Shown piece after piece: positions 1 to 41,350 of a DNA stretch of 41,350 nucleotides. The notes beneath the pieces were generated by a model. It ran no database searches. It was not told where the DNA came from and worked only from the letters and a program-made list of their open reading frames with translations. The stretch covers positions 1-41,350 of the IMG/VR virus record IMGVR_UViG_3300045988_014834; one strand, 5' to 3'. How positions within the stretch are numbered: position 1 is the stretch's first letter; the number at the start of each line of letters is the position of its first letter. The translations under genes were made by a program, and so were the position numbers. This stretch comes from a virus. Its lineage: Duplodnaviria; Heunggongvirae; Uroviricota; Caudoviricetes.

Positions 1-55
1 CCCCGTCGCGCTGCACGTTTTTTCTTATCGATTACACCCATCGCGATAAGCGCCT
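1..55. repeat. Terminal direct repeat, identical to 41296-41350; circular closure or terminal redundancy
   Basis: Read directly: first 55 nt equal last 55 nt of the window. Confidence 0.9.
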
Positions 56-139
56 GTTCGTGTCCGTCGGCTATAGAATCAAACTCTCTGATTTTATGCT
101 TATCCACAAACTCGTAGGTGGCGAACCTGTACAGCGCGT

Positions 140-556
140 CTACTTTTCCTGTAATGCTTTGCGCTCGGCGTTATGGAACGCGGCCACCTGTGTACCTAAT
201 GCCCTGAACTGGTCCAGCAATTTGTTAAATGCTTCTTTAGAGAAAGGCTCATCGAAGCTCCAGCCGTTTACGACTTCTGCCGCGAGTTGTCGGTTGAGGT
301 CTTCGGCCAGTTCGTTAACCGCCAGGTTATATTCAGTATAGTCGCCGGATTCTTTGGCGGCTTTTTCCAGCTCTTCGAAACGCGCCAACCCGCGGCGGTA
401 CGCGATAATGAAAGCACGTCCGGCTTTAACGGCGGCATCCGCATCGGGACTTACAACGTTAAGCCACTCCCCTGAGTCTTCGCCATTTGGCAGGAGAATT
501 GGCATCTTCTTGCCTACCAGTGCTTTCTCTTCGAAATAAAAATCAGAAAGTTTCAT
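140..556 (-). CDS. Tail assembly chaperone (lambda G-like), 138 aa
   Basis: Sits between major tail protein and tape measure genes on the late strand; its 3' end is overlapped in the -1 frame by an ORF that runs to the tape measure start. Confidence 0.5.
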   Translation of the reverse strand: MKLSDFYFEEKALVGKKMPILLPNGEDSGEWLNVVSPDADAAVKAGRAFIIAYRRGLARFEELEKAAKESGDYTEYNLAVNELAEDLNRQLAAEVVNGWSFDEPFSKEAFNKLLDQFRALGTQVAAFHNAERKALQEK

Positions 557-2311: not shown

Positions 2312-2340
2312 GAAAAAGGCCCCGAAAGGGGCCTTAGTTT
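2312..2340. terminator. Bidirectional intrinsic terminator (GGCCCC-GAAA-GGGGCC)
   Basis: Perfect GC hairpin flanked by an A-run and a T-run, between convergent genes. Confidence 0.7.
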
Positions 2341-3512
2341 TATGCGTAGGTTATACGCTGAATAACAATAGACGACTGGTACTGATTGCCTGTGGACTGT
2401 CCTTCTATGCTTTGGGTGATTGACTCAGGCCCGCCAATCTCTGGTGTAACCGCCGTAAGTTCCGCGCGTTTCAGGCTGAAAGACATAGCCCCGTTTACCC
2501 CCGCCAGAATAGAGTTAATCTCTACCTGCTGCTCGTTGATAAACTTCTGAATCATCGCCATGTCGTACAGTTTACCGGAGATGGAGAAGGTGTTAGCTGC
2601 ACGGCTACGCTCCACAAACGCTACGTTAGTGTTACCAAGTTCGAACTGTGCGGACGCGCTGTTATCGTTGGTGATGGTCAGACTGTCACAACGCAACGGC
2701 GTAGAGCCGTCGAACACGGAAACGTCAACCGAGGAGAATGGCTCGTCACCAAACGTAACAGAGGAGAAATCAGAACCTGTCGGCGGCTCGGTGAGAATCT
2801 CCTGGCTGCGCCCGATGAACGGGAAACTGCCCGTTACCATCGCATTAACGGCCTGCTCGACAGTGAAACCGGAAACTTCCACACCTTTAGTAAGCGTGTA
2901 CGCGTCAGCCCCGCCGCACTGCCCTTTGTACCAGGTGAGAATAGAGAACGTCTTGCACTGGCTTCCTGTTTCCAGTTTATCCCCTGTCTTAGCGGCGGTA
3001 GTTACTGTCTCAGTGGTAAGAGTATGTTGGATACCCGCACCTGTAACAACAGTTGCACTTACCTCGGTTACGATAAACGGTTTTGCGTTGTCGCCCGTTA
3101 AGTCGGTAAACGCAATCAGGTCGCCCACTTCAATGCCGTCGGTAATAAAGCTGCCATCAGCACGGGTGAACGTCTTGCCCGCCGGTGCGACGGTAATCGA
3201 CAGCCCGGACAGAAAAACACCGGATTGCCACGTAGAGCCTAACGCGCCCGCTAACCAGTCATCCTGGCTTTTCGAGCTAAGCTCAATAGCATATTCACCA
3301 CTAACCTGTTTGTTACCGGTGCGGATGGACGTAGTTTCACGGCTGCCATCCAGTTCGTTGGAGGTCAGCGTGTCACGGGTAATGGCAGGAACGCCACCTG
3401 TGTTACGCAGCGGCGACCATACCGGGTTACTTGGTGTTACGCCCGGGGTAACTTCCGCCACATAGAATTGCGCGGTATTCGCGCCCTTAAAAGGAGTTGT
3501 AGCCATATTCAC
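2340..3512 (-). CDS. Major tail (tube) protein, 390 aa
   Basis: Position between neck genes and tail chaperone; Thr/Ser/Gly-rich beta-type composition; terminator immediately downstream. Confidence 0.5.
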   Translation of the reverse strand: MNMATTPFKGANTAQFYVAEVTPGVTPSNPVWSPLRNTGGVPAITRDTLTSNELDGSRETTSIRTGNKQVSGEYAIELSSKSQDDWLAGALGSTWQSGVFLSGLSITVAPAGKTFTRADGSFITDGIEVGDLIAFTDLTGDNAKPFIVTEVSATVVTGAGIQHTLTTETVTTAAKTGDKLETGSQCKTFSILTWYKGQCGGADAYTLTKGVEVSGFTVEQAVNAMVTGSFPFIGRSQEILTEPPTGSDFSSVTFGDEPFSSVDVSVFDGSTPLRCDSLTITNDNSASAQFELGNTNVAFVERSRAANTFSISGKLYDMAMIQKFINEQQVEINSILAGVNGAMSFSLKRAELTAVTPEIGGPESITQSIEGQSTGNQYQSSIVIQRITYA

Positions 3513-6030: not shown

Positions 6031-6999
6031 TCACTTGTCCGCGTCGGCGATTGCCAGAGTACCGAGGGTGTGTTTGTTCTCGGCAACAGCTTTGTCCCAG
6101 TTGGTCGCGGTGAACAGTTCTGCGTCCAGCGGAGATTTACCGCCGTTGGCGACATCCCAGCTATAGCCTTTCAGTTTCAGGCCGAAGCTGTAATCCGCCT
6201 GCCAGGTGGTCTGGATGCGGGTGTTACCGTTGCTGGTATCAATGTTGCTGATAATGTCAGAAGCATTATCAACGATGATGCCGTTTGCAACTACTGACAG
6301 GACCTTAGTCTTGTTCGGAGTACCAGCTTCGTACAGCGCAGGGATGTCGGAGATCACATAACGCTTACCGAGAACATCGACAACCATAACGTTACCAGCA
6401 ACGAACAGCTGGTTTGCGTTAGTCAGCGCTTTATCTACCAGCGTGTGATAAGCAGCACCAGTCATGATGTCGGTAATCAGCAGCTGAGACTGGTCGCCGA
6501 ATTTAGCGTGGCTGTTGTTCAGCACGTTCAGGGACAGACCCACGGTTGCAGATACGTCGTTAACCAGCGCGGCCTGACCAGATACCGCCGCAACAGCTGC
6601 GCCAACAGCAGTGTTGAGCTGGTCCGCTAACAGTGCGTCAGAGAAGCCTTCGGAAATAGCACGAATCGCGCTCGCCGGGTCTTCGTTAAGCCAGGTCATT
6701 TGCGCAGGCTCGAACAGTACCGGTCCGAAGCCGCCAGCGACTTTAACGCCTACATGCTCGCCCTGAGTCAGCGCGGTAGCTGCCTGAGACGCGATAGCGG
6801 CGTAACGGTCAACGCGGCGTTTAGCGGAGGCAATCTGGTTAAAGAAAGACTCACGTGAGAAGTCACCGCGCCATGAAGCGGTAGACAGTACAATTGCACC
6901 ACCGGAGGCTGCGTTAAACTGGTCAGTTTTCTGGCCAAGCAGTTCGATAGTGGTACCGACGATGTCGTCGTTATAAACCTTCATATCTGACAGAGACAT
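6031..6999 (-). CDS. Major capsid protein, 322 aa
   Basis: Follows the scaffold gene; size and composition typical of an HK97-fold capsid protein; attenuator hairpin downstream. Confidence 0.65.
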   Translation of the reverse strand: MSLSDMKVYNDDIVGTTIELLGQKTDQFNAASGGAIVLSTASWRGDFSRESFFNQIASAKRRVDRYAAIASQAATALTQGEHVGVKVAGGFGPVLFEPAQMTWLNEDPASAIRAISEGFSDALLADQLNTAVGAAVAAVSGQAALVNDVSATVGLSLNVLNNSHAKFGDQSQLLITDIMTGAAYHTLVDKALTNANQLFVAGNVMVVDVLGKRYVISDIPALYEAGTPNKTKVLSVVANGIIVDNASDIISNIDTSNGNTRIQTTWQADYSFGLKLKGYSWDVANGGKSPLDAELFTATNWDKAVAENKHTLGTLAIADADK

Positions 7000-8522: not shown

Positions 8523-8551
8523 TTGCACACCCCGATATAATAGGGTACTAT
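8523..8551 (+). promoter_or_regulatory. Early promoter copy (TTGCAC N17 TACTAT) driving the methyltransferase
   Basis: TTGCACACCCCGATATAATAGGGTACTATTCAG. Confidence 0.6.
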
Positions 8552-8579
8552 TCAGTTAACTTGAACAGCAGGAGTTAAA

Positions 8580-9308
8580 ATGTTTACTTTGAAACGTGGG
8601 GATTGTCTGGAGTTGATGCATGACGTACCAGATAAGAGTGTAGACCTTATTTTATGCGATTTACCTTATGGTACGACGCAAAACAAATGGGATACGGTAA
8701 TACCTTTCGATGCCCTATGGGGCCATTACATGCGTATTTCTCGCGGTGCTATTGTGCTAACAGCAGCGCAACCTTTCACTAGCGCGTTGATTATGAGTAA
8801 TGCTAAATTGTTCAAATACTCGTGGGTTTGGGATAAGGCAAATAGCACTGGATTCCTTAACGCTAAAAAGCAACCTTTACGCCGAACAGAGGACGTGGTT
8901 GTATTTTATGGCTCACAGCCAACCTATAACCCTCAAATGGAAGTTAGAGGTAAGCCCCGTAAGAAAGGTGGGTATATTAAAAAAGACGGCTCTGACAACT
9001 ATGGGTCTTTTAAAAGTGTAGAATCTGTTAGTAATGATTACTACCCCACCAATTTGATAGAAATATCTAATGCTAATAGGTCGGAAAAGTGCCACCCCAC
9101 CCAAAAACCAGTAGCGTTGATGGAATACCTGATTAAGACGTATACAAACGAAGGGGATACAGTTCTTGATAACTGTATGGGCAGCGGGACGACCGGAGTT
9201 GCGTGTGCGAACACAAACCGGAAGTTTATAGGCATGGAGTTAGACCGTGATTACTTCCGTATAGCCAGAAGACGCATATCTGAAGCATATAAAACTAAGG
9301 CCCCTTAA
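8580..9308 (+). CDS. Orphan DNA methyltransferase (N6-adenine/N4-cytosine beta-class), 242 aa
   Basis: Catalytic-motif region DLILCDLPYG followed later by the AdoMet motif HPTQKP...VLDNCMGSGTT; no restriction enzyme partner nearby. Confidence 0.85.
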   Translation: MFTLKRGDCLELMHDVPDKSVDLILCDLPYGTTQNKWDTVIPFDALWGHYMRISRGAIVLTAAQPFTSALIMSNAKLFKYSWVWDKANSTGFLNAKKQPLRRTEDVVVFYGSQPTYNPQMEVRGKPRKKGGYIKKDGSDNYGSFKSVESVSNDYYPTNLIEISNANRSEKCHPTQKPVALMEYLIKTYTNEGDTVLDNCMGSGTTGVACANTNRKFIGMELDRDYFRIARRRISEAYKTKAP

Positions 9309-10893: not shown

Positions 10894-12387
10894 TTACTGC
10901 TGGGTGGTGTCCTGTTGCTGCGCCGACTGCGGAATTTCTCCTGCTACCTGAGAAACAGCACCTAACGGCAGAGGCACATCTTCGATAGCGTTCTGAATGT
11001 CCTCATCTGTCCAGTCAGTTACGCCAGCTTTACGCAATGCCGCGTAATAAGCGGTAGCCGGTAGCAGGCCTGCGTTGATATCGGCCATCCACTGAGCACG
11101 GTCCTGAGCGGTCATCGGTTGCAGGAAGAACTCCATATTCAGCTTGAACTCAATCTCAGTACCGTCACTAAGCCCAAGCATACCAGCTACCCATTTCAGC
11201 GCATCGGTATACGCCATGCTTACGTTACGTGCGATTGTTGCCATAACGGACGTATCAGCGCCGCGTTGCAGGCGTGCCGATTCAGCAGTGATTTGCTGCG
11301 TCGGGGTGATAAGCTGCGCGCCAATCTGGATGGCCTGATTCTCTTTATCCAGCATGTTCTGCTTGGCAAGATTGTTCTCTCCTGCCTGAACCAGAAACGC
11401 ATTGCCGCCGTAACCAATGTTATGGCCTGAACGCGACCCCATGCGCACGCCGTGAGGGTTAGCTTCTTTCCACTGCGCCATGCTCATATTCTCACCGGGA
11501 GCGATGAACAGAGTAGGCTGGCCTACGACGAAGCTGGACTCCTCATTGTCTGCGCTGTTGCGGAAGTGTCCAATATTGAGTTCAGCCAACGGCAGCAAAG
11601 GTGCATCGTCAGGGGTTGAGTCGTTATTCCCCGCGCCAATGAACGTGAACGGAATCACCCCGACCGGAATATTACCGAGTTTCGGGAAGATTTCGATATA
11701 GCCACCTTCCATCAGTGCGCCTTTCTGGTTAAAGCGGTACAGACGCTGGCGATACTGGCCTTCGAAGATATCAAGGACGCGGTATTGCTCGCCGTAGTTT
11801 GGGCTAAACTCATCCGTGCCGTCGGTGTACTCATATTCTTCACACAATACGACCATAACCACGCGATTGACCGACCCTACGCGCTCGAGGCGCCAGTTGA
11901 TGATGTTCTCTGCGGTGTAGAAAGCGATTGTCGGGTTAAGTAAGCCCTCGTTTTGCTCAGCCATAGTGGCGACTTCTACCGCGGGGGCATCAACCAGCAA
12001 ACCGCCACGTCCGACAGCGTCAATCTCATACAGGGTATCCTGAGCGTGCTGCCACAGGCCGACACCAGACCCGTCGCAGTTAGTGGTCAGGTACTCCATC
12101 TGAGACGGAATAATCATCTCGGGGTCTTTGCGCATTACGCTGCCTACCATACCGGAAAGCGTTCGCTTGGTGAAGTTGTAGCAAATAGCCCCTGCTTCAT
12201 ATTCGGCCTGACGCTGGCGACCATACACAGGGTCCGGCTCATTCTTGCCGACGTCACGTAAATACGATGTAAGGTCGCCAGAAAGAGCATGTCGCACCTT
12301 CTGCCACTTAGGGAAATACTCTTCGTACTGGCGGTGGCGGGTTTTAACGTTCTGCCCTTGCCCTGCGTTACTGTTTGCGGAAACCAT
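10894..12387 (-). CDS. Portal protein, 497 aa
   Basis: Immediately downstream of the terminase large subunit; size; acidic Gln-rich C-terminus. Confidence 0.7.
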   Translation of the reverse strand: MVSANSNAGQGQNVKTRHRQYEEYFPKWQKVRHALSGDLTSYLRDVGKNEPDPVYGRQRQAEYEAGAICYNFTKRTLSGMVGSVMRKDPEMIIPSQMEYLTTNCDGSGVGLWQHAQDTLYEIDAVGRGGLLVDAPAVEVATMAEQNEGLLNPTIAFYTAENIINWRLERVGSVNRVVMVVLCEEYEYTDGTDEFSPNYGEQYRVLDIFEGQYRQRLYRFNQKGALMEGGYIEIFPKLGNIPVGVIPFTFIGAGNNDSTPDDAPLLPLAELNIGHFRNSADNEESSFVVGQPTLFIAPGENMSMAQWKEANPHGVRMGSRSGHNIGYGGNAFLVQAGENNLAKQNMLDKENQAIQIGAQLITPTQQITAESARLQRGADTSVMATIARNVSMAYTDALKWVAGMLGLSDGTEIEFKLNMEFFLQPMTAQDRAQWMADINAGLLPATAYYAALRKAGVTDWTDEDIQNAIEDVPLPLGAVSQVAGEIPQSAQQQDTTQQ

Positions 12388-12398
12388 TTGTTGTCCTC

Positions 12399-13649
12399 TT
12401 AAAGTGCGAAAGTCACCGGGATGTTGATTACTGGTTTAACCACCGGCATCTCGTAAACTACAGGATAGCCGAGAGCATCCGCCATATGGTCAATGATGCC
12501 GTCTTTAGCTGGCTCTCCGTTATCGTCGTATGCCTGCTGTTCCAGCGTCTTCGCTATCTCAGGGCATAAGTGGTCATTAACCCACAGCTTACCTTTTTCC
12601 AACGCGGTATTCACTGCTAAAACACGGTCTTTAACCGGGGGGTTGGCGGATTTAGTGCGAACATCAAACCCGGCCTGCTGTAGTAATGCGATATCAGAGA
12701 TTGACGCTGAGTTGGTTTTGCGGTTCTTGCCGCTGGCGTCGGGGTAAACGACGATGCTGTGACCTTGCGACTTCCACTTCTCGGTAATTACGCGCACGGT
12801 GTCCGGCGTGTCGAACAGGCCTTTCAGTTCTGCTACCGCGTGCCAGCCGTCTTTACGCTGCACGTATACGGCACTTGCGTTCTTCGTAACGTTGAAGTCC
12901 TGCCCAATGTACAGCGTGTCACCTGGTTGAATTGTCTCTTTGCTGCGGTGCTTACGGCGGTCATACGCGTAATACACGCTGCCGGAGGTAAGGTTGACGA
13001 ACTCACCATTCAGGTACGCGTTAATTAATTGCGCGGGGTAAGTCTCAGTCAGTGAGCTAATGTAGTCAGGCGGCAGGAATCGCGCATTCTCGTGTGTGGA
13101 AGCCTGCACCATCGAGTAACTTGGCGTCGGATTCTCTTTGAACTTGGCATAGACGAACTTAAACCCTTCCGGCGTCGTGGTGACAGAGATGTGGTTAATT
13201 ACACCGGGAATAACCAGACGCATACGGGCTACTATTTTGTTCCACGCCAGCTCCGCTTTTTCTCGGCTCAATACGTCCAACTCATCGACGACCGCAGCCG
13301 CGATTTTGAAACCAACAATCGAGCCAGGGTTATCCATTGAACGGCAGATAACTGTACCTAACACTGTCTTACCGCGGGTGACAACAACTTCTTTGTCGCC
13401 AGATTTAACCAGCACATCGAGGCCTAGCAGGTTAGCGGCTTCCTCAAATGTCGGGTAGAAGATGTCGCGAATAGCCGGGTATGTGGGCCCGAAGTAGCCG
13501 AGGCGCGTACCGGGGTGCTTGAGCATAAACGTAAGTAAGTCCAGACAGCCAACAAAGGTTTTGCCGCTTCCGAAGCCGCCAACGTAGGCCTTGTATTTAT
13601 TGTCGCAATTCAGGAACAGTGCCTGTGGTGCGGATAGCTGAATACTCAT
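12399..13649 (-). CDS. Terminase large subunit, 416 aa
   Basis: Walker A GGFGSGKT near the N-terminus; position ahead of portal. Confidence 0.85.
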   Translation of the reverse strand: MSIQLSAPQALFLNCDNKYKAYVGGFGSGKTFVGCLDLLTFMLKHPGTRLGYFGPTYPAIRDIFYPTFEEAANLLGLDVLVKSGDKEVVVTRGKTVLGTVICRSMDNPGSIVGFKIAAAVVDELDVLSREKAELAWNKIVARMRLVIPGVINHISVTTTPEGFKFVYAKFKENPTPSYSMVQASTHENARFLPPDYISSLTETYPAQLINAYLNGEFVNLTSGSVYYAYDRRKHRSKETIQPGDTLYIGQDFNVTKNASAVYVQRKDGWHAVAELKGLFDTPDTVRVITEKWKSQGHSIVVYPDASGKNRKTNSASISDIALLQQAGFDVRTKSANPPVKDRVLAVNTALEKGKLWVNDHLCPEIAKTLEQQAYDDNGEPAKDGIIDHMADALGYPVVYEMPVVKPVINIPVTFAL

Positions 13650-14230
13650 TCCTCTACCTCGCCCATATTAGTTGTTACGATTTTACCTACTGGCTCAGCG
13701 ACACTGAAAACAATCTCAGTCGGTGCCGTTTCTTCGGTGGATTCAACTGGTTTCTCTTTGCTAAGGCCGAGCTTAGCCGCGGCAAACGTAGCTGAGATAC
13801 CTGCGGCCCCTGTCTCGGTGAAATATGCCTCTTCCAGTGCCTGTGCGGTCTCGTAGGCTTCTGCGAATGCGGGAATCTCACGCAGCCACAGCTTAATAAT
13901 CGGGATAGTGACACCAATATGTAAGGCGAAGCGGGCCAGCGACGGTGGTTTATCCTGAATCAGCGGGCGTTCGTCGCCTTTGGACGTAGGCACAAGCTCC
14001 CATGACGTGCGGTCGAAGAACTCGATTAACGCGTCGCAATAGTCCGGGTCCCACAACGCAGCGGAATTACGGGATGATTGATAAAGGCTCTGTTTGCCGC
14101 GCGGTCGTTTACGACGACGGTTTGCGCTAACTGCTTCTTCATGTGCAGCTTGCACCACCTCTGGCGATGGCTGCTTGAGTTTCAGCTTCATAGAATCCCC
14201 TTGCATATGCGTCTGACCATCAGAGCGCAT
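13646..14230 (-). CDS. Terminase small subunit candidate (likely start at the ATG near 14191)
   Basis: Coupled upstream of the large subunit; basic N-terminal region. Confidence 0.45.
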   Translation of the reverse strand: MRSDGQTHMQGDSMKLKLKQPSPEVVQAAHEEAVSANRRRKRPRGKQSLYQSSRNSAALWDPDYCDALIEFFDRTSWELVPTSKGDERPLIQDKPPSLARFALHIGVTIPIIKLWLREIPAFAEAYETAQALEEAYFTETGAAGISATFAAAKLGLSKEKPVESTEETAPTEIVFSVAEPVGKIVTTNMGEVEE

Positions 14231-38172: not shown

Positions 38173-38654
38173 ATTCGTGGAAACGTCGATTGTGCGGTTC
38201 CGTAGGCTTTAAGGAAACATCCCAGCCCATCACCATAGCAACCATACAAATCCGGCAGATTGTTAACAAGACACTGGTTCTCAAGGTCCTGGAACGGCGA
38301 TTTCTCGGCGGTTGCCGTGAAAGTAATCGTCCAGTTAATGCCGTCTTCGGTGGACTCAGCGATGGTGGACGTGATGGTTACCTGGTAATCCTCGATACCC
38401 ATGCCGAAGTCATGCGCCATCCAGAAACTTGACGCACCGCCATCGACTTTCTCAAGGAACGACAGAAACGCCTGCCGCCCTAGCGCCGATGTAATCAGGG
38501 TTACGCTGACAGGGAACACGTCGTAATACGTGTCACGGCCCTGGCGCACCCCGCCGCCAGCTAAATCAACGCTCCATACGTTGTTGCGTCTGGTCATTGA
38601 GTAGCCTTTCGACACTATAGGACGGAGGCCACGTGGGAAATATAAGTCGCTCAT
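38154..38654 (-). CDS. Minor/distal tail protein (lambda M-like), 166 aa
   Basis: Immediately downstream of the tape measure gene. Confidence 0.4.
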   Translation of the reverse strand: MSDLYFPRGLRPIVSKGYSMTRRNNVWSVDLAGGGVRQGRDTYYDVFPVSVTLITSALGRQAFLSFLEKVDGGASSFWMAHDFGMGIEDYQVTITSTIAESTEDGINWTITFTATAEKSPFQDLENQCLVNNLPDLYGCYGDGLGCFLKAYGTAQSTFPRIWDPMQ

Positions 38655-41077
38655 TATTTGAACCCCGGCGCGTTTCTTGTGGCCTTGCGGGCCTTGCTAA
38701 TCTTACTGTTGCTGTTCTGCAAAGAGGCCGCCACTTGCTCCTCGATGATGATGCGCAAACGACCTTCATCATCTTGTTCGGTGGATACGCGGCCAATCTG
38801 ACTCGATGTGTTATTTACAATGGTAACATTAGTTGGTCCGCTATTTCCGCTATTATCGCCGTTTAACTGTTGTCGTGTTTGGCTTGCGTTCACCGCGCGC
38901 CCCGCCCCTGCCATCTTGATAATCTCGGGGCCGCGCTCACCAACAAGATAGCTGCCGCCCGCGTTCATTTGACCTCCTTGTTCGCGGAACCCCGTTAAGG
39001 CTAACGCTTGGGTACCCGCAACCGTTGATGTGATGCCTGCCATCGCCGGTGCGCTGTTTGTCCCTAGAGTAGCCAGGGACGCCATAGCTGCAGCGGGGGC
39101 ATACGCTGCAGCAATCGCCGCGCCGGTAGCCGATGCTGTCGCGATGGACGCCGCGGATGCCATTTGTCCTATAATCATGTTTTTCAGGTACTCCACCCCC
39201 ATCTGCGTTAGCCCTGAAACGACTGAGGACAGAATGGCGTTACCGAGGTTCGCCATTGCTTCGCTAGCGGTCTGTGTGCCGTTAATGAGGCCAACTATGG
39301 AGCTGGATGCGGATGCACCAACAGCGTCAAGGGAATCCATTAACATATTGTTCCACTCGGACTGGTTGCGGAAACGCTCCTCGGCCGCGGCGGCCAACCC
39401 ATCGTTATACTGCTTGTCCAGTTCAGCCCGTGCCTGCAACGCGACTTCATGTACGGAGTTTTCTTGTGCCTCATATTCCTCTATAACCGCAAGACGCTTC
39501 TGCCGTTCAAGCTGTAAGTTTGCTATGGGGTCGATTGATGCCAGAACCGCTACACCTTGTTGCAGTTTTTTCTGTTCCTCGGCTAACTCTTTATCAATAG
39601 CGTCTTGTCGTTTTTGCCCGTATTGAAGAACTATTGCGGTTTTCGCCTTTTCATATTCTTCAGCAGTTAGCGCCCCTTCTTTTCGGTATTTAGCGGCCTC
39701 CTTAAGTTTCTGCTGTTCCTGAGCGTCAATAGCCTTTAACTCGTCGTTGTTCTGACGGGCCAGAGTATCGAGATAATCTTGCGCCTGTTTACGCAATTGC
39801 TCCGCTTTCTTAGCGGCGGCTTTCGCATCTTTGTCGTTGGTGTTTCCGGCTCCGCCATTTCCGCCCTTTTTATTAACAAGGCTGGCCAAGTCAATTTCCT
39901 GCTTCTTGCGCTCGTCGTACTGCTTGCGCTGTTCCTCAATTTCTTTCTTACGCTGCTTAGACCTGTTGGTAATGGCCTGTGATTCCGCCTCTGCGCGTTT
40001 TATGCTGGCGGCGTATGCGGCGTCGGCCTCTGCGGTCAGGTTTTTAAATGTGAGCGCTGCCGTTTTGCTCGGGTCAAACACGTCGGCAAGGGTCTGTCCT
40101 AACGCTACGGCGTAATCGTCAATGCGCTGGAACCACGCAATAACCTCGTGGAATGTCTGCTGGATGTCAGGCAGCCACTCACGGATAGCGTCCGGTATAG
40201 TTCCCAGCGAGTCGGACATATCAACGGATTTGTCCTCTGTATCGAATGCCAGGTCATCCAGGGCATCAGAAATAAACTTGAACGACTCATTGAACAGCGT
40301 TACCCAATCCTGGAGCGTGGCTGCTATCTCATTAGACGCTATAGCGTCGGTGAGCGCTGTAATAGCATCTTCCGCTGTTGCTGCTTGTTCACCTACCGCG
40401 TCACCAAAACCGGATTGTGCTACCGCGAGAACAAGGCCATCGAAGGAGTCGGCGAGGCTTGACAATTGACCGTCTAATGTCTTCGAGCGCGTCTCCATCG
40501 CTCCGGCGAAATCAGTGTTGCCAATGTTTAGCAGGTATTTCTGAATCTCTTCGGAGTTCTTCTTAACCGTGGTTGTTACGCCGCGGAACGTGAAAGAAAC
40601 GGTATCCGCCTGTTGCGACGACTTGATGCCAAACTCTTTTAGTCGCTCAAACTCAAAGGTACTGGCGTCGGCAACTGCCTCAATCATCTGATTAAGGTCT
40701 TTACCCATCGCCGCCGCGGTGTTGCCGTAGGAGATTAATGCCTCTTTGCTGGGGTTCAGACCCAGGGCCACCAGCTTAGTAAAGCCTTCCACCGCCTGAT
40801 TAAGCCCGTATGGTGTTTCTTTTGCGAACTGTTGCAGGACGCTGAAAGCCTTAGCCGCGTTCTCTGCGCTTCCGGTCATCGTGATGAGGCCGGAGTTCAG
40901 CTTGTCGAAGTTGCGCTGGGAGTCCACCAGCGCGCTGAATACCTGCTTAGCAGTTTCCAGACTGACAACGGCGGCGGCGGCAGCGCCCGCAGCTTTGGTA
41001 AGCCCGTTCAGTTGTGATGTGGTTTTATCGACGCCGGTCGATGATACTCGTACTATCAAACTAGCGGTATCAGCCAT
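38654..41077 (-). CDS. Tail tape measure protein (track start is a TTG at 41092; likely ATG at 41077)
   Basis: Long Ala/Gln/Glu-rich coiled-coil protein with Gly-rich C-terminal region; sits between chaperone and minor tail genes. Confidence 0.8.
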   Translation of the reverse strand: MADTASLIVRVSSTGVDKTTSQLNGLTKAAGAAAAAVVSLETAKQVFSALVDSQRNFDKLNSGLITMTGSAENAAKAFSVLQQFAKETPYGLNQAVEGFTKLVALGLNPSKEALISYGNTAAAMGKDLNQMIEAVADASTFEFERLKEFGIKSSQQADTVSFTFRGVTTTVKKNSEEIQKYLLNIGNTDFAGAMETRSKTLDGQLSSLADSFDGLVLAVAQSGFGDAVGEQAATAEDAITALTDAIASNEIAATLQDWVTLFNESFKFISDALDDLAFDTEDKSVDMSDSLGTIPDAIREWLPDIQQTFHEVIAWFQRIDDYAVALGQTLADVFDPSKTAALTFKNLTAEADAAYAASIKRAEAESQAITNRSKQRKKEIEEQRKQYDERKKQEIDLASLVNKKGGNGGAGNTNDKDAKAAAKKAEQLRKQAQDYLDTLARQNNDELKAIDAQEQQKLKEAAKYRKEGALTAEEYEKAKTAIVLQYGQKRQDAIDKELAEEQKKLQQGVAVLASIDPIANLQLERQKRLAVIEEYEAQENSVHEVALQARAELDKQYNDGLAAAAEERFRNQSEWNNMLMDSLDAVGASASSSIVGLINGTQTASEAMANLGNAILSSVVSGLTQMGVEYLKNMIIGQMASAASIATASATGAAIAAAYAPAAAMASLATLGTNSAPAMAGITSTVAGTQALALTGFREQGGQMNAGGSYLVGERGPEIIKMAGAGRAVNASQTRQQLNGDNSGNSGPTNVTIVNNTSSQIGRVSTEQDDEGRLRIIIEEQVAASLQNSNSKISKARKATRNAPGFK

Positions 41078-41350
41078 GATTTCTACCTTCAAAGATTGCT
41101 TCTAAGCCCATGATAATGTCTATCTCGAACAGGCTAAGCTGTTTTTGCGTAACATCGAGATAGGCTTTCAGGTCTTGCCACGTAACGGATTCTCTTGCGA
41201 ACAATACTACAGCGTCCTCGCGCGCGTGTCGCGTAAACTTAATGTCGCAATACGTCTCAAAGGTGGATATAAAAAGGGGTGGGCATTCTGGCCCACCCCG
41301 TCGCGCTGCACGTTTTTTCTTATCGATTACACCCATCGCGATAAGCGCCT
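41070..41350 (-). CDS. T-like -1 frame extension of the tail chaperone; in the circular genome it continues as 56-170
   Basis: Open minus-strand frame from the stop at 171-173 through the junction to 41070, ending in overlap with the tape measure ATG; no convincing own start codon. Confidence 0.45.
   Translation of the reverse strand, partial: ALIAMGVIDKKKRAARRGGPECPPLFISTFETYCDIKFTRHAREDAVVLFARESVTWQDLKAYLDVTQKQLSLFEIDIIMGLEAIFEGRNHG
41276..41299 (-). terminator. Terminator-like hairpin GGGGTGGGC-ATTCTG-GCCCACCCC with T5 on the minus strand
   Basis: Read from sequence; lies inside the chaperone extension frame. Confidence 0.4.
41296..41350. repeat. Second copy of the 55-bp terminal repeat
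   Basis: Identical to 1-55. Confidence 0.9.

Follow-up and report, generated by a model that had tools for sequence, protein, structure and literature searches.

The 55-bp repeat at the two ends of the window – the whole stretch of 41,350 nucleotides analyzed here – is a by-product of the assembly software, left when a circle was closed, and not a structure in the phage DNA. The window itself is the complete genome of an E. coli siphophage of the genus Kagunavirus (Guernseyvirinae). As a whole, the observations are best explained by three elements taken together, i.e. an overlap artefact with k = 55, a complete circular map, and a headful-packaged Kagunavirus; we consider this combination highly probable.

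Direct comparison of the window ends reveals that bases 1-55 and 41296-41350 are identical at 55 out of 55 positions, and both ends read CCCCGTCGCGCTGCACGTTTTTTCTTATCGATTACACCCATCGCGATAAGCGCCT. The longest prefix of the window that is also its suffix comprises exactly 55 bases; by simple arithmetic, an exact match of this length at two given positions is expected by chance with odds of 4^-55, or about 8e-34. A search of both strands of the window found no third copy of the 55-mer, and internal direct repeats longer than 32 nt are absent from the window. The edges of the repeat are sharp: from base 56 (GTTCG...) onwards the continuation of the second copy differs, and the bases that precede position 41296 (...GGCCCA) are not repeated. 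The first copy (1..55) is genuine genome sequence and belongs to the coding sequence of a chaperone extension; the second (41296..41350) is redundant and has the length of an assembler k-mer. After removal of the overlap, 41,295 bp of unique sequence remain, with a G+C content of 51%. The initial annotation had already reported identical 55-bp ends and a unique genome of 41295 bp, and the complete match together with the missing third copy bears this out.

The length of the overlap matches a k-mer size used by common assemblers. By default, metaSPAdes runs through the k series 21, 33, and 55, of which 55 is the largest value, and the default k list of MEGAHIT does not contain 55. Among metagenome contigs, terminal repeats accumulate at lengths of 55, 77, and 99 bp (CheckV, PMC8116208, legend to Extended Data Fig. 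3), which the CheckV authors ascribe to the k-mer lengths of assemblers and to circular templates broken at a random location (PMC8116208). Individual examples are a circular plasmid contig from metaSPAdes with a 55-bp end overlap (PMC8851603) and phage contigs from SPAdes with identical ends of 77 bp (PMC9409062); according to the COBRA paper, the end overlaps of both metaSPAdes and MEGAHIT correspond to the largest k (PMC10914622). The k-mer overlaps of de Bruijn assemblers (SPAdes/metaSPAdes, k = 55/77/99/127) are exact direct repeats present at contig ends only, as in the window. On circular paths they fall at an arbitrary position, away from the packaging genes and with genes running across the ends; here, too, we found no difference from the window. 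In our model, the repeat would come from an assembler based on de Bruijn graphs (most likely metaSPAdes or SPAdes, run up to k = 55): a closed cycle of reads would have been written as a linear contig cut at an arbitrary node, which would leave the k-mer of that node at both ends. The true sequence would be a circular map of 41,295 bp from a lytic Kagunavirus siphophage.

On the minus strand, the structural genes follow each other in the order small terminase, large terminase, portal protein (10894..12387; DUF4055 in Pfam; PHROG 145, E 1e-145), head morphogenesis protein, major capsid protein (6031-6999), tail tube (2340-3512), and tail assembly chaperone; then come the join, the tape measure gene, and the genes of the distal tail. 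The chaperone gene (140..556, minus strand) resembles gene G of lambda and is assigned to Phage_TAC_4 in Pfam and to positions 1-138 of PHROG 15027 (E 7e-71). The tape measure protein (38654..41092, minus strand) is recognized mainly by homologs annotated as tape measure in related phages; its match to the Pfam family TMP_3 is weak (38.4 bits, below the curated cut-off of 41). The junction thus lies between the chaperone and the tape measure gene and about 12 kb from the terminase genes (12399-14230). This gene map agrees with the earlier reading that the junction falls in the tail operon and not beside the terminase.

Within this block, a group of plus-strand genes at 709-2311 is placed against the flow between the tail tube and the tail assembly chaperone genes, and is likewise annotated in the relatives. 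It includes the gene for a superinfection-immunity-like small membrane protein (709-915) and a metallophosphoesterase gene (954-2084). A direct repeat of 32 nt (665-696 and 8523-8554; 31 of 32 positions identical), which reads TTGCACACCCCAATATAATAGGGTACTATTCA and contains TATAAT, occurs just upstream of this island and of a second plus-strand island at 8580-9308 within the minus-strand structural block. From its sequence and placement, the 32-nt repeat looks like a shared promoter for inserted plus-strand genes.

Many Kagunavirus records share 87-94% nucleotide identity with the window over about 70-80% of its sequence, as well as its gene order, and the Escherichia phages P AB-2017, HSE2, and K1G are about 90-93% identical to it. 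The Kagunavirus phages of E. coli (P AB-2017, HSE2, K1G, K1ind1-3, fTaEco03, Shashou) have genomes of 40.6-44.5 kb with the same order of genes; they differ from the window by the usual mosaic, with uncovered segments of 20-40%. Close relatives measure 40.6-41.5 kb, in agreement with the window, and the deposited records of the relatives open at many different positions.

These relatives allow the join to be examined directly. We joined the last 1,500 to the first 1,500 unique bases and used these 3 kb as a query; in 43 independent phage records it aligned internally, in a single piece, with 91-94% identity and 100% coverage. Each of 14 IMG/VR contigs and 8 metagenome contigs contains the exact 55-mer once, always flanked on both sides and never terminal. 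A 50-mer that spans both the repeat and the adjacent hairpin has no match in IMG/VR; a rare variant, A, is present in the hairpin of the window. All around the circle, the genes are collinear with those of phage Shashou; the stretch across the join measures about 895 bp here and 909 bp in Shashou, and the two ends of the Shashou record map to the adjacent window bases 14242/14243. By alignment, the window and the Shashou record are rotations of one circular map.

A circle in an assembly graph may also be spurious or chimeric and thus not represent a complete single genome, and spurious cycles do occur in metagenome graphs (PMC9104695). For the window we regard this as very improbable: its size agrees with that of close relatives; complete regions for packaging, head, tail, replication, and lysis are collinear with Shashou around the circle without a gap at the join; and the junction is 91-94% identical to isolate genomes in a single aligned piece.

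Even less credible, to the point of being nearly negligible, is the idea that the 55 bp form a genuine short direct terminal repeat with which the virion DNA physically ends, in the manner of T7-like phages. The sole point in its favor is that an exact direct repeat stands at both ends of the record, and the likeness to T7-like short exact repeats goes no further than this formal appearance in a linear record. T7-like repeats are physical ends, consist of non-coding DNA, occupy the same place in relatives, and go along with a different clade of terminases, whereas the repeat of the window lies within a gene and is internal in all relatives. Physical ends at this place would fall in the middle of a coding sequence, the conserved extension of the tail assembly chaperone; the sequence runs through the join in the 43 related records, and the 55-mer is internal in 22 other contigs; the repeat has the length of a standard assembler k-mer. 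Moreover, pac packaging has been predicted for a phage with an almost identical large terminase, and the enzyme of P AB-2017, 99.3% identical to that of the window, has been placed outside the clade of short-terminal-repeat phages (PMC5582158). Because the join lies inside a conserved coding sequence, the contig ends are not where the ends of a physical genome would be expected. The interpretation of the repeat as an assembly overlap, already preferred over a physical terminal repeat in the initial annotation, is consolidated by the k-mer length of 55, by the join inside a coding sequence, and by the continuity in 43 relatives.

The coding sequence in question is a minus-strand open reading frame that runs straight through the junction once the sequence is circularized. 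It corresponds to the T part of the lambda G/GT system, is shifted by -1 against the chaperone gene, and becomes open about 11 codons ahead of the chaperone stop, so that it overlaps the end of that gene. On the linear record the frame is split: the upstream part extends from the proposed slip site to the junction (1..149, minus strand), with the -1 frame open; the downstream part extends to the stop codon (41070..41295, minus strand), overlaps the start of the tape measure gene, and is joined to the former by the open frame across the junction. The encoded peptide aligns with positions 151-259, the second half, of PHROG 15027 'tail assembly chaperone' (E 3e-60). The records of K1G (RefSeq) and fTaEco03 give the chaperone as a joined coding sequence, with the homologous stretch as its second piece; altogether, the records of the relatives disagree on the annotation of such a joined gene.

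We propose the heptamer G GAA AAG (149-143), which is directly followed by the stop codon TAG (142-140), as the place where ribosomes change frame. The motif GGAAAAGTAG is invariant in 10 out of 11 aligned sequences (eight from Kagunavirus, including the window, and three from Jerseyvirus); the exception, Raoultella phage RP180, has the canonical G GGA AAG. G GAA AAG at 149-143 is likely a -1 slip site. The authors who described Shashou saw no canonical slippery sequence. The arrangement resembles lambda G/GT in several respects: two overlapping frames are situated between the tail tube and the tape measure genes, the second of them is shifted by -1 and starts before the first has ended, the slip-prone A AAG at the gene end is present in the window as well, and RP180 even has the G GGA AAG of lambda. 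Unlike lambda, most members possess the non-canonical G GAA AAG right before the stop codon, and frameshifting here is a prediction. A second candidate, A AAA AAC (23-17, minus strand), lies 12 nt upstream of the hairpin described below; we rejected it as a frameshift signal, since its reading frame is closed by stops and belongs to no gene.

The hairpin is located inside the T-like frame, directly at the junction. It is rich in G+C, occupies positions 41276..41299 – as had been noted before – on the minus strand, and consists of a 9-bp stem and a 6-nt loop: the arms GGGGTGGGC (41276-41284) and GCCCACCCC (41291-41299) enclose the loop ATTCTG. The repeat begins with the last four bases of the hairpin. 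We considered whether the hairpin had caused the contig to break, and regard this as unlikely: with 24 nt, the palindrome falls short of k = 55 and should leave the graph unbranched. No link between the hairpin and the break point was found, and we treat their adjacency as coincidence.

Read on the minus strand, the hairpin is preceded by an A-tract (18-23) and followed by TTTTTAT (T-tract at 41271-41275), and the whole was scored as terminator-like. The predicted folding energy is -24.6 kcal/mol (z -3.7). The conserved peptide G-P-E-C-P-P dictates part of the sequence. Among the 8 isolate genomes and 22 contigs compared, pair five of the stem is U-G in most cases, U-A in the window and two contigs, and C-G in two further contigs, but never C-A; the eighth pair is either G-C or G-U, and the remaining changes fall in the loop. 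In this comparison, the hairpin is conserved in Kagunavirus with substitutions that preserve pairing. The Jerseyvirus homologs lack the extended stem and the U-tract, and the Shashou annotation has no terminator entered at this site. One could imagine a working transcription attenuator inside a stretch translated only by ribosomes that have shifted frame. Most ribosomes would stop at position 140 and leave the RNA bare; A-tract, hairpin, and U-tract would then end part of the transcripts and lower the dose of the tape measure and distal tail genes, and ribosomes that shift frame would melt the hairpin. We hold such a function to be rather unlikely. In any case, the attenuator idea is unconnected with the terminal repeat.

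As regards packaging, the initial annotation had deduced a circularly permuted, headful-packaged genome from the distance between the junction and the terminase genes. This reasoning does not hold: a de Bruijn assembler breaks any circular path arbitrarily, so that the junction position says nothing about packaging, and contigs of Chi-like phages, which package by cos, also end within genes (PMC9409062). The conclusion itself is nevertheless supported on other grounds, namely the near-identity of the terminases to those of P AB-2017 and Shashou. The large subunit (12399..13649, minus strand) contains the Pfam domains Terminase_6N and Terminase_6C and is 99.3% identical to the enzyme of P AB-2017 and 98.1% identical to those of Shashou and of Salmonella phage Jersey. 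The small subunit (13646..14230, minus strand) belongs to PHROG 3064 (E 1e-73) and is 94.8% identical to its counterpart in Shashou, for which the GenBank record gives an HHpred similarity to P22 gp3. A sequence search with both subunits against all solved structures returned no usable match that would tie the enzyme to P22, SPP1, or P1; Pfam has no family for the small subunit and only the general Terminase_6N/6C for the large one. Since the structure searches were empty, the headful assignment rests on near-identity to phages with read-based predictions, and its link to the well-studied headful terminases on a published phylogeny and on the HHpred note.

Several results from these relatives point in the same direction. 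Based on sheared-DNA (TruSeq) libraries, PhageTerm predicted pac packaging for Shashou (PMC6776780). The large terminases of the P/L/G AB-2017 phages and of K1G/K1H form a clade of their own that stands close to the headful packagers and is separate from the clade of phages with short terminal repeats (PMC5582158). Published work predicts headful packaging for the Guernseyvirinae phage Sciku, and PhageTerm found no obvious termini in the Kagunavirus fBC-Eco01. For Jerseyviruses, the ends of Se_F1 are redundant, random, and permuted (PMC9409062), and a circular restriction map and a broad PFGE band have been published for K47. In comparison with the headful (pac) systems of P22, SPP1, and P1, the window shares the pac prediction obtained from reads for near-identical terminases, and its subfamily shares permuted ends and a circular map; it differs in that its terminases have no detectable match to solved structures. 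By analogy with these phages, there is good support for a circularly permuted genome packaged by the headful mechanism.

The terminase genes are mosaic within the Guernseyvirinae. The large terminase of the window is 98-99% identical to that of some Kagunaviruses and of phage Jersey, about 54% to that of most Jerseyviruses, and about 40% to that of other Kagunaviruses and of Dhillonviruses. Because of this mosaicism, packaging data cannot be transferred by genus name alone. The large terminase behind the experimental data on K47 probably shares only about 54% identity with that of the window, judging from other isolates from Kenya, whose enzymes show about this value.

One can also accept the repeat as an artefact and the map as complete, and still propose that the virion DNA has fixed ends elsewhere, which could be cohesive or carry a direct terminal repeat of greater length; closure of the circle would then be due to reads from concatemers, to annealed ends, or to a collapsed repeat. 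Circular closure alone does not discriminate between the two cases, as the Chi-like contigs with genes across their ends illustrate (PMC9409062). Furthermore, a paper on a Kagunavirus uses generic cos wording for the terminase (PMC9825357), and neither the structure nor the Pfam searches tied the terminases to a headful enzyme that has been studied. Yet the pac prediction by PhageTerm concerns a phage whose large terminase is 98% identical, no obvious termini emerged in fBC-Eco01, and the phylogeny puts the 99%-identical enzyme of P AB-2017 near the headful packagers and away from the short-repeat clade (PMC5582158). The scattered starting points of the relatives' public records and the absence from the window of internal direct repeats longer than 32 nt also speak against fixed ends, which we therefore consider improbable. 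If headful packaging applies, as we infer, the reads would form a circle because a headful (pac-type) terminase cuts the virion DNA from concatemers; the virion molecules would be linear, terminally redundant, and circularly permuted, and would have no fixed ends.

For the use of the record, the last 55 bases (41296-41350) should be trimmed and the remainder treated as a complete circular map of 41,295 bp; the repeat should not be taken for a packaging signal or for physical termini. On the linear record, gene callers truncate the chaperone-extension frame that crosses the join, and the linear list of open reading frames shows only a fragment of 88 aa. Genes should hence be called on the circular sequence, which keeps this frame whole. 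As for the biology of the phage, the repeat adds nothing new: genome and packaging mode are of a well-known kind, headful packaging is already the accepted view for the genus, and our understanding of phage biology is unchanged.
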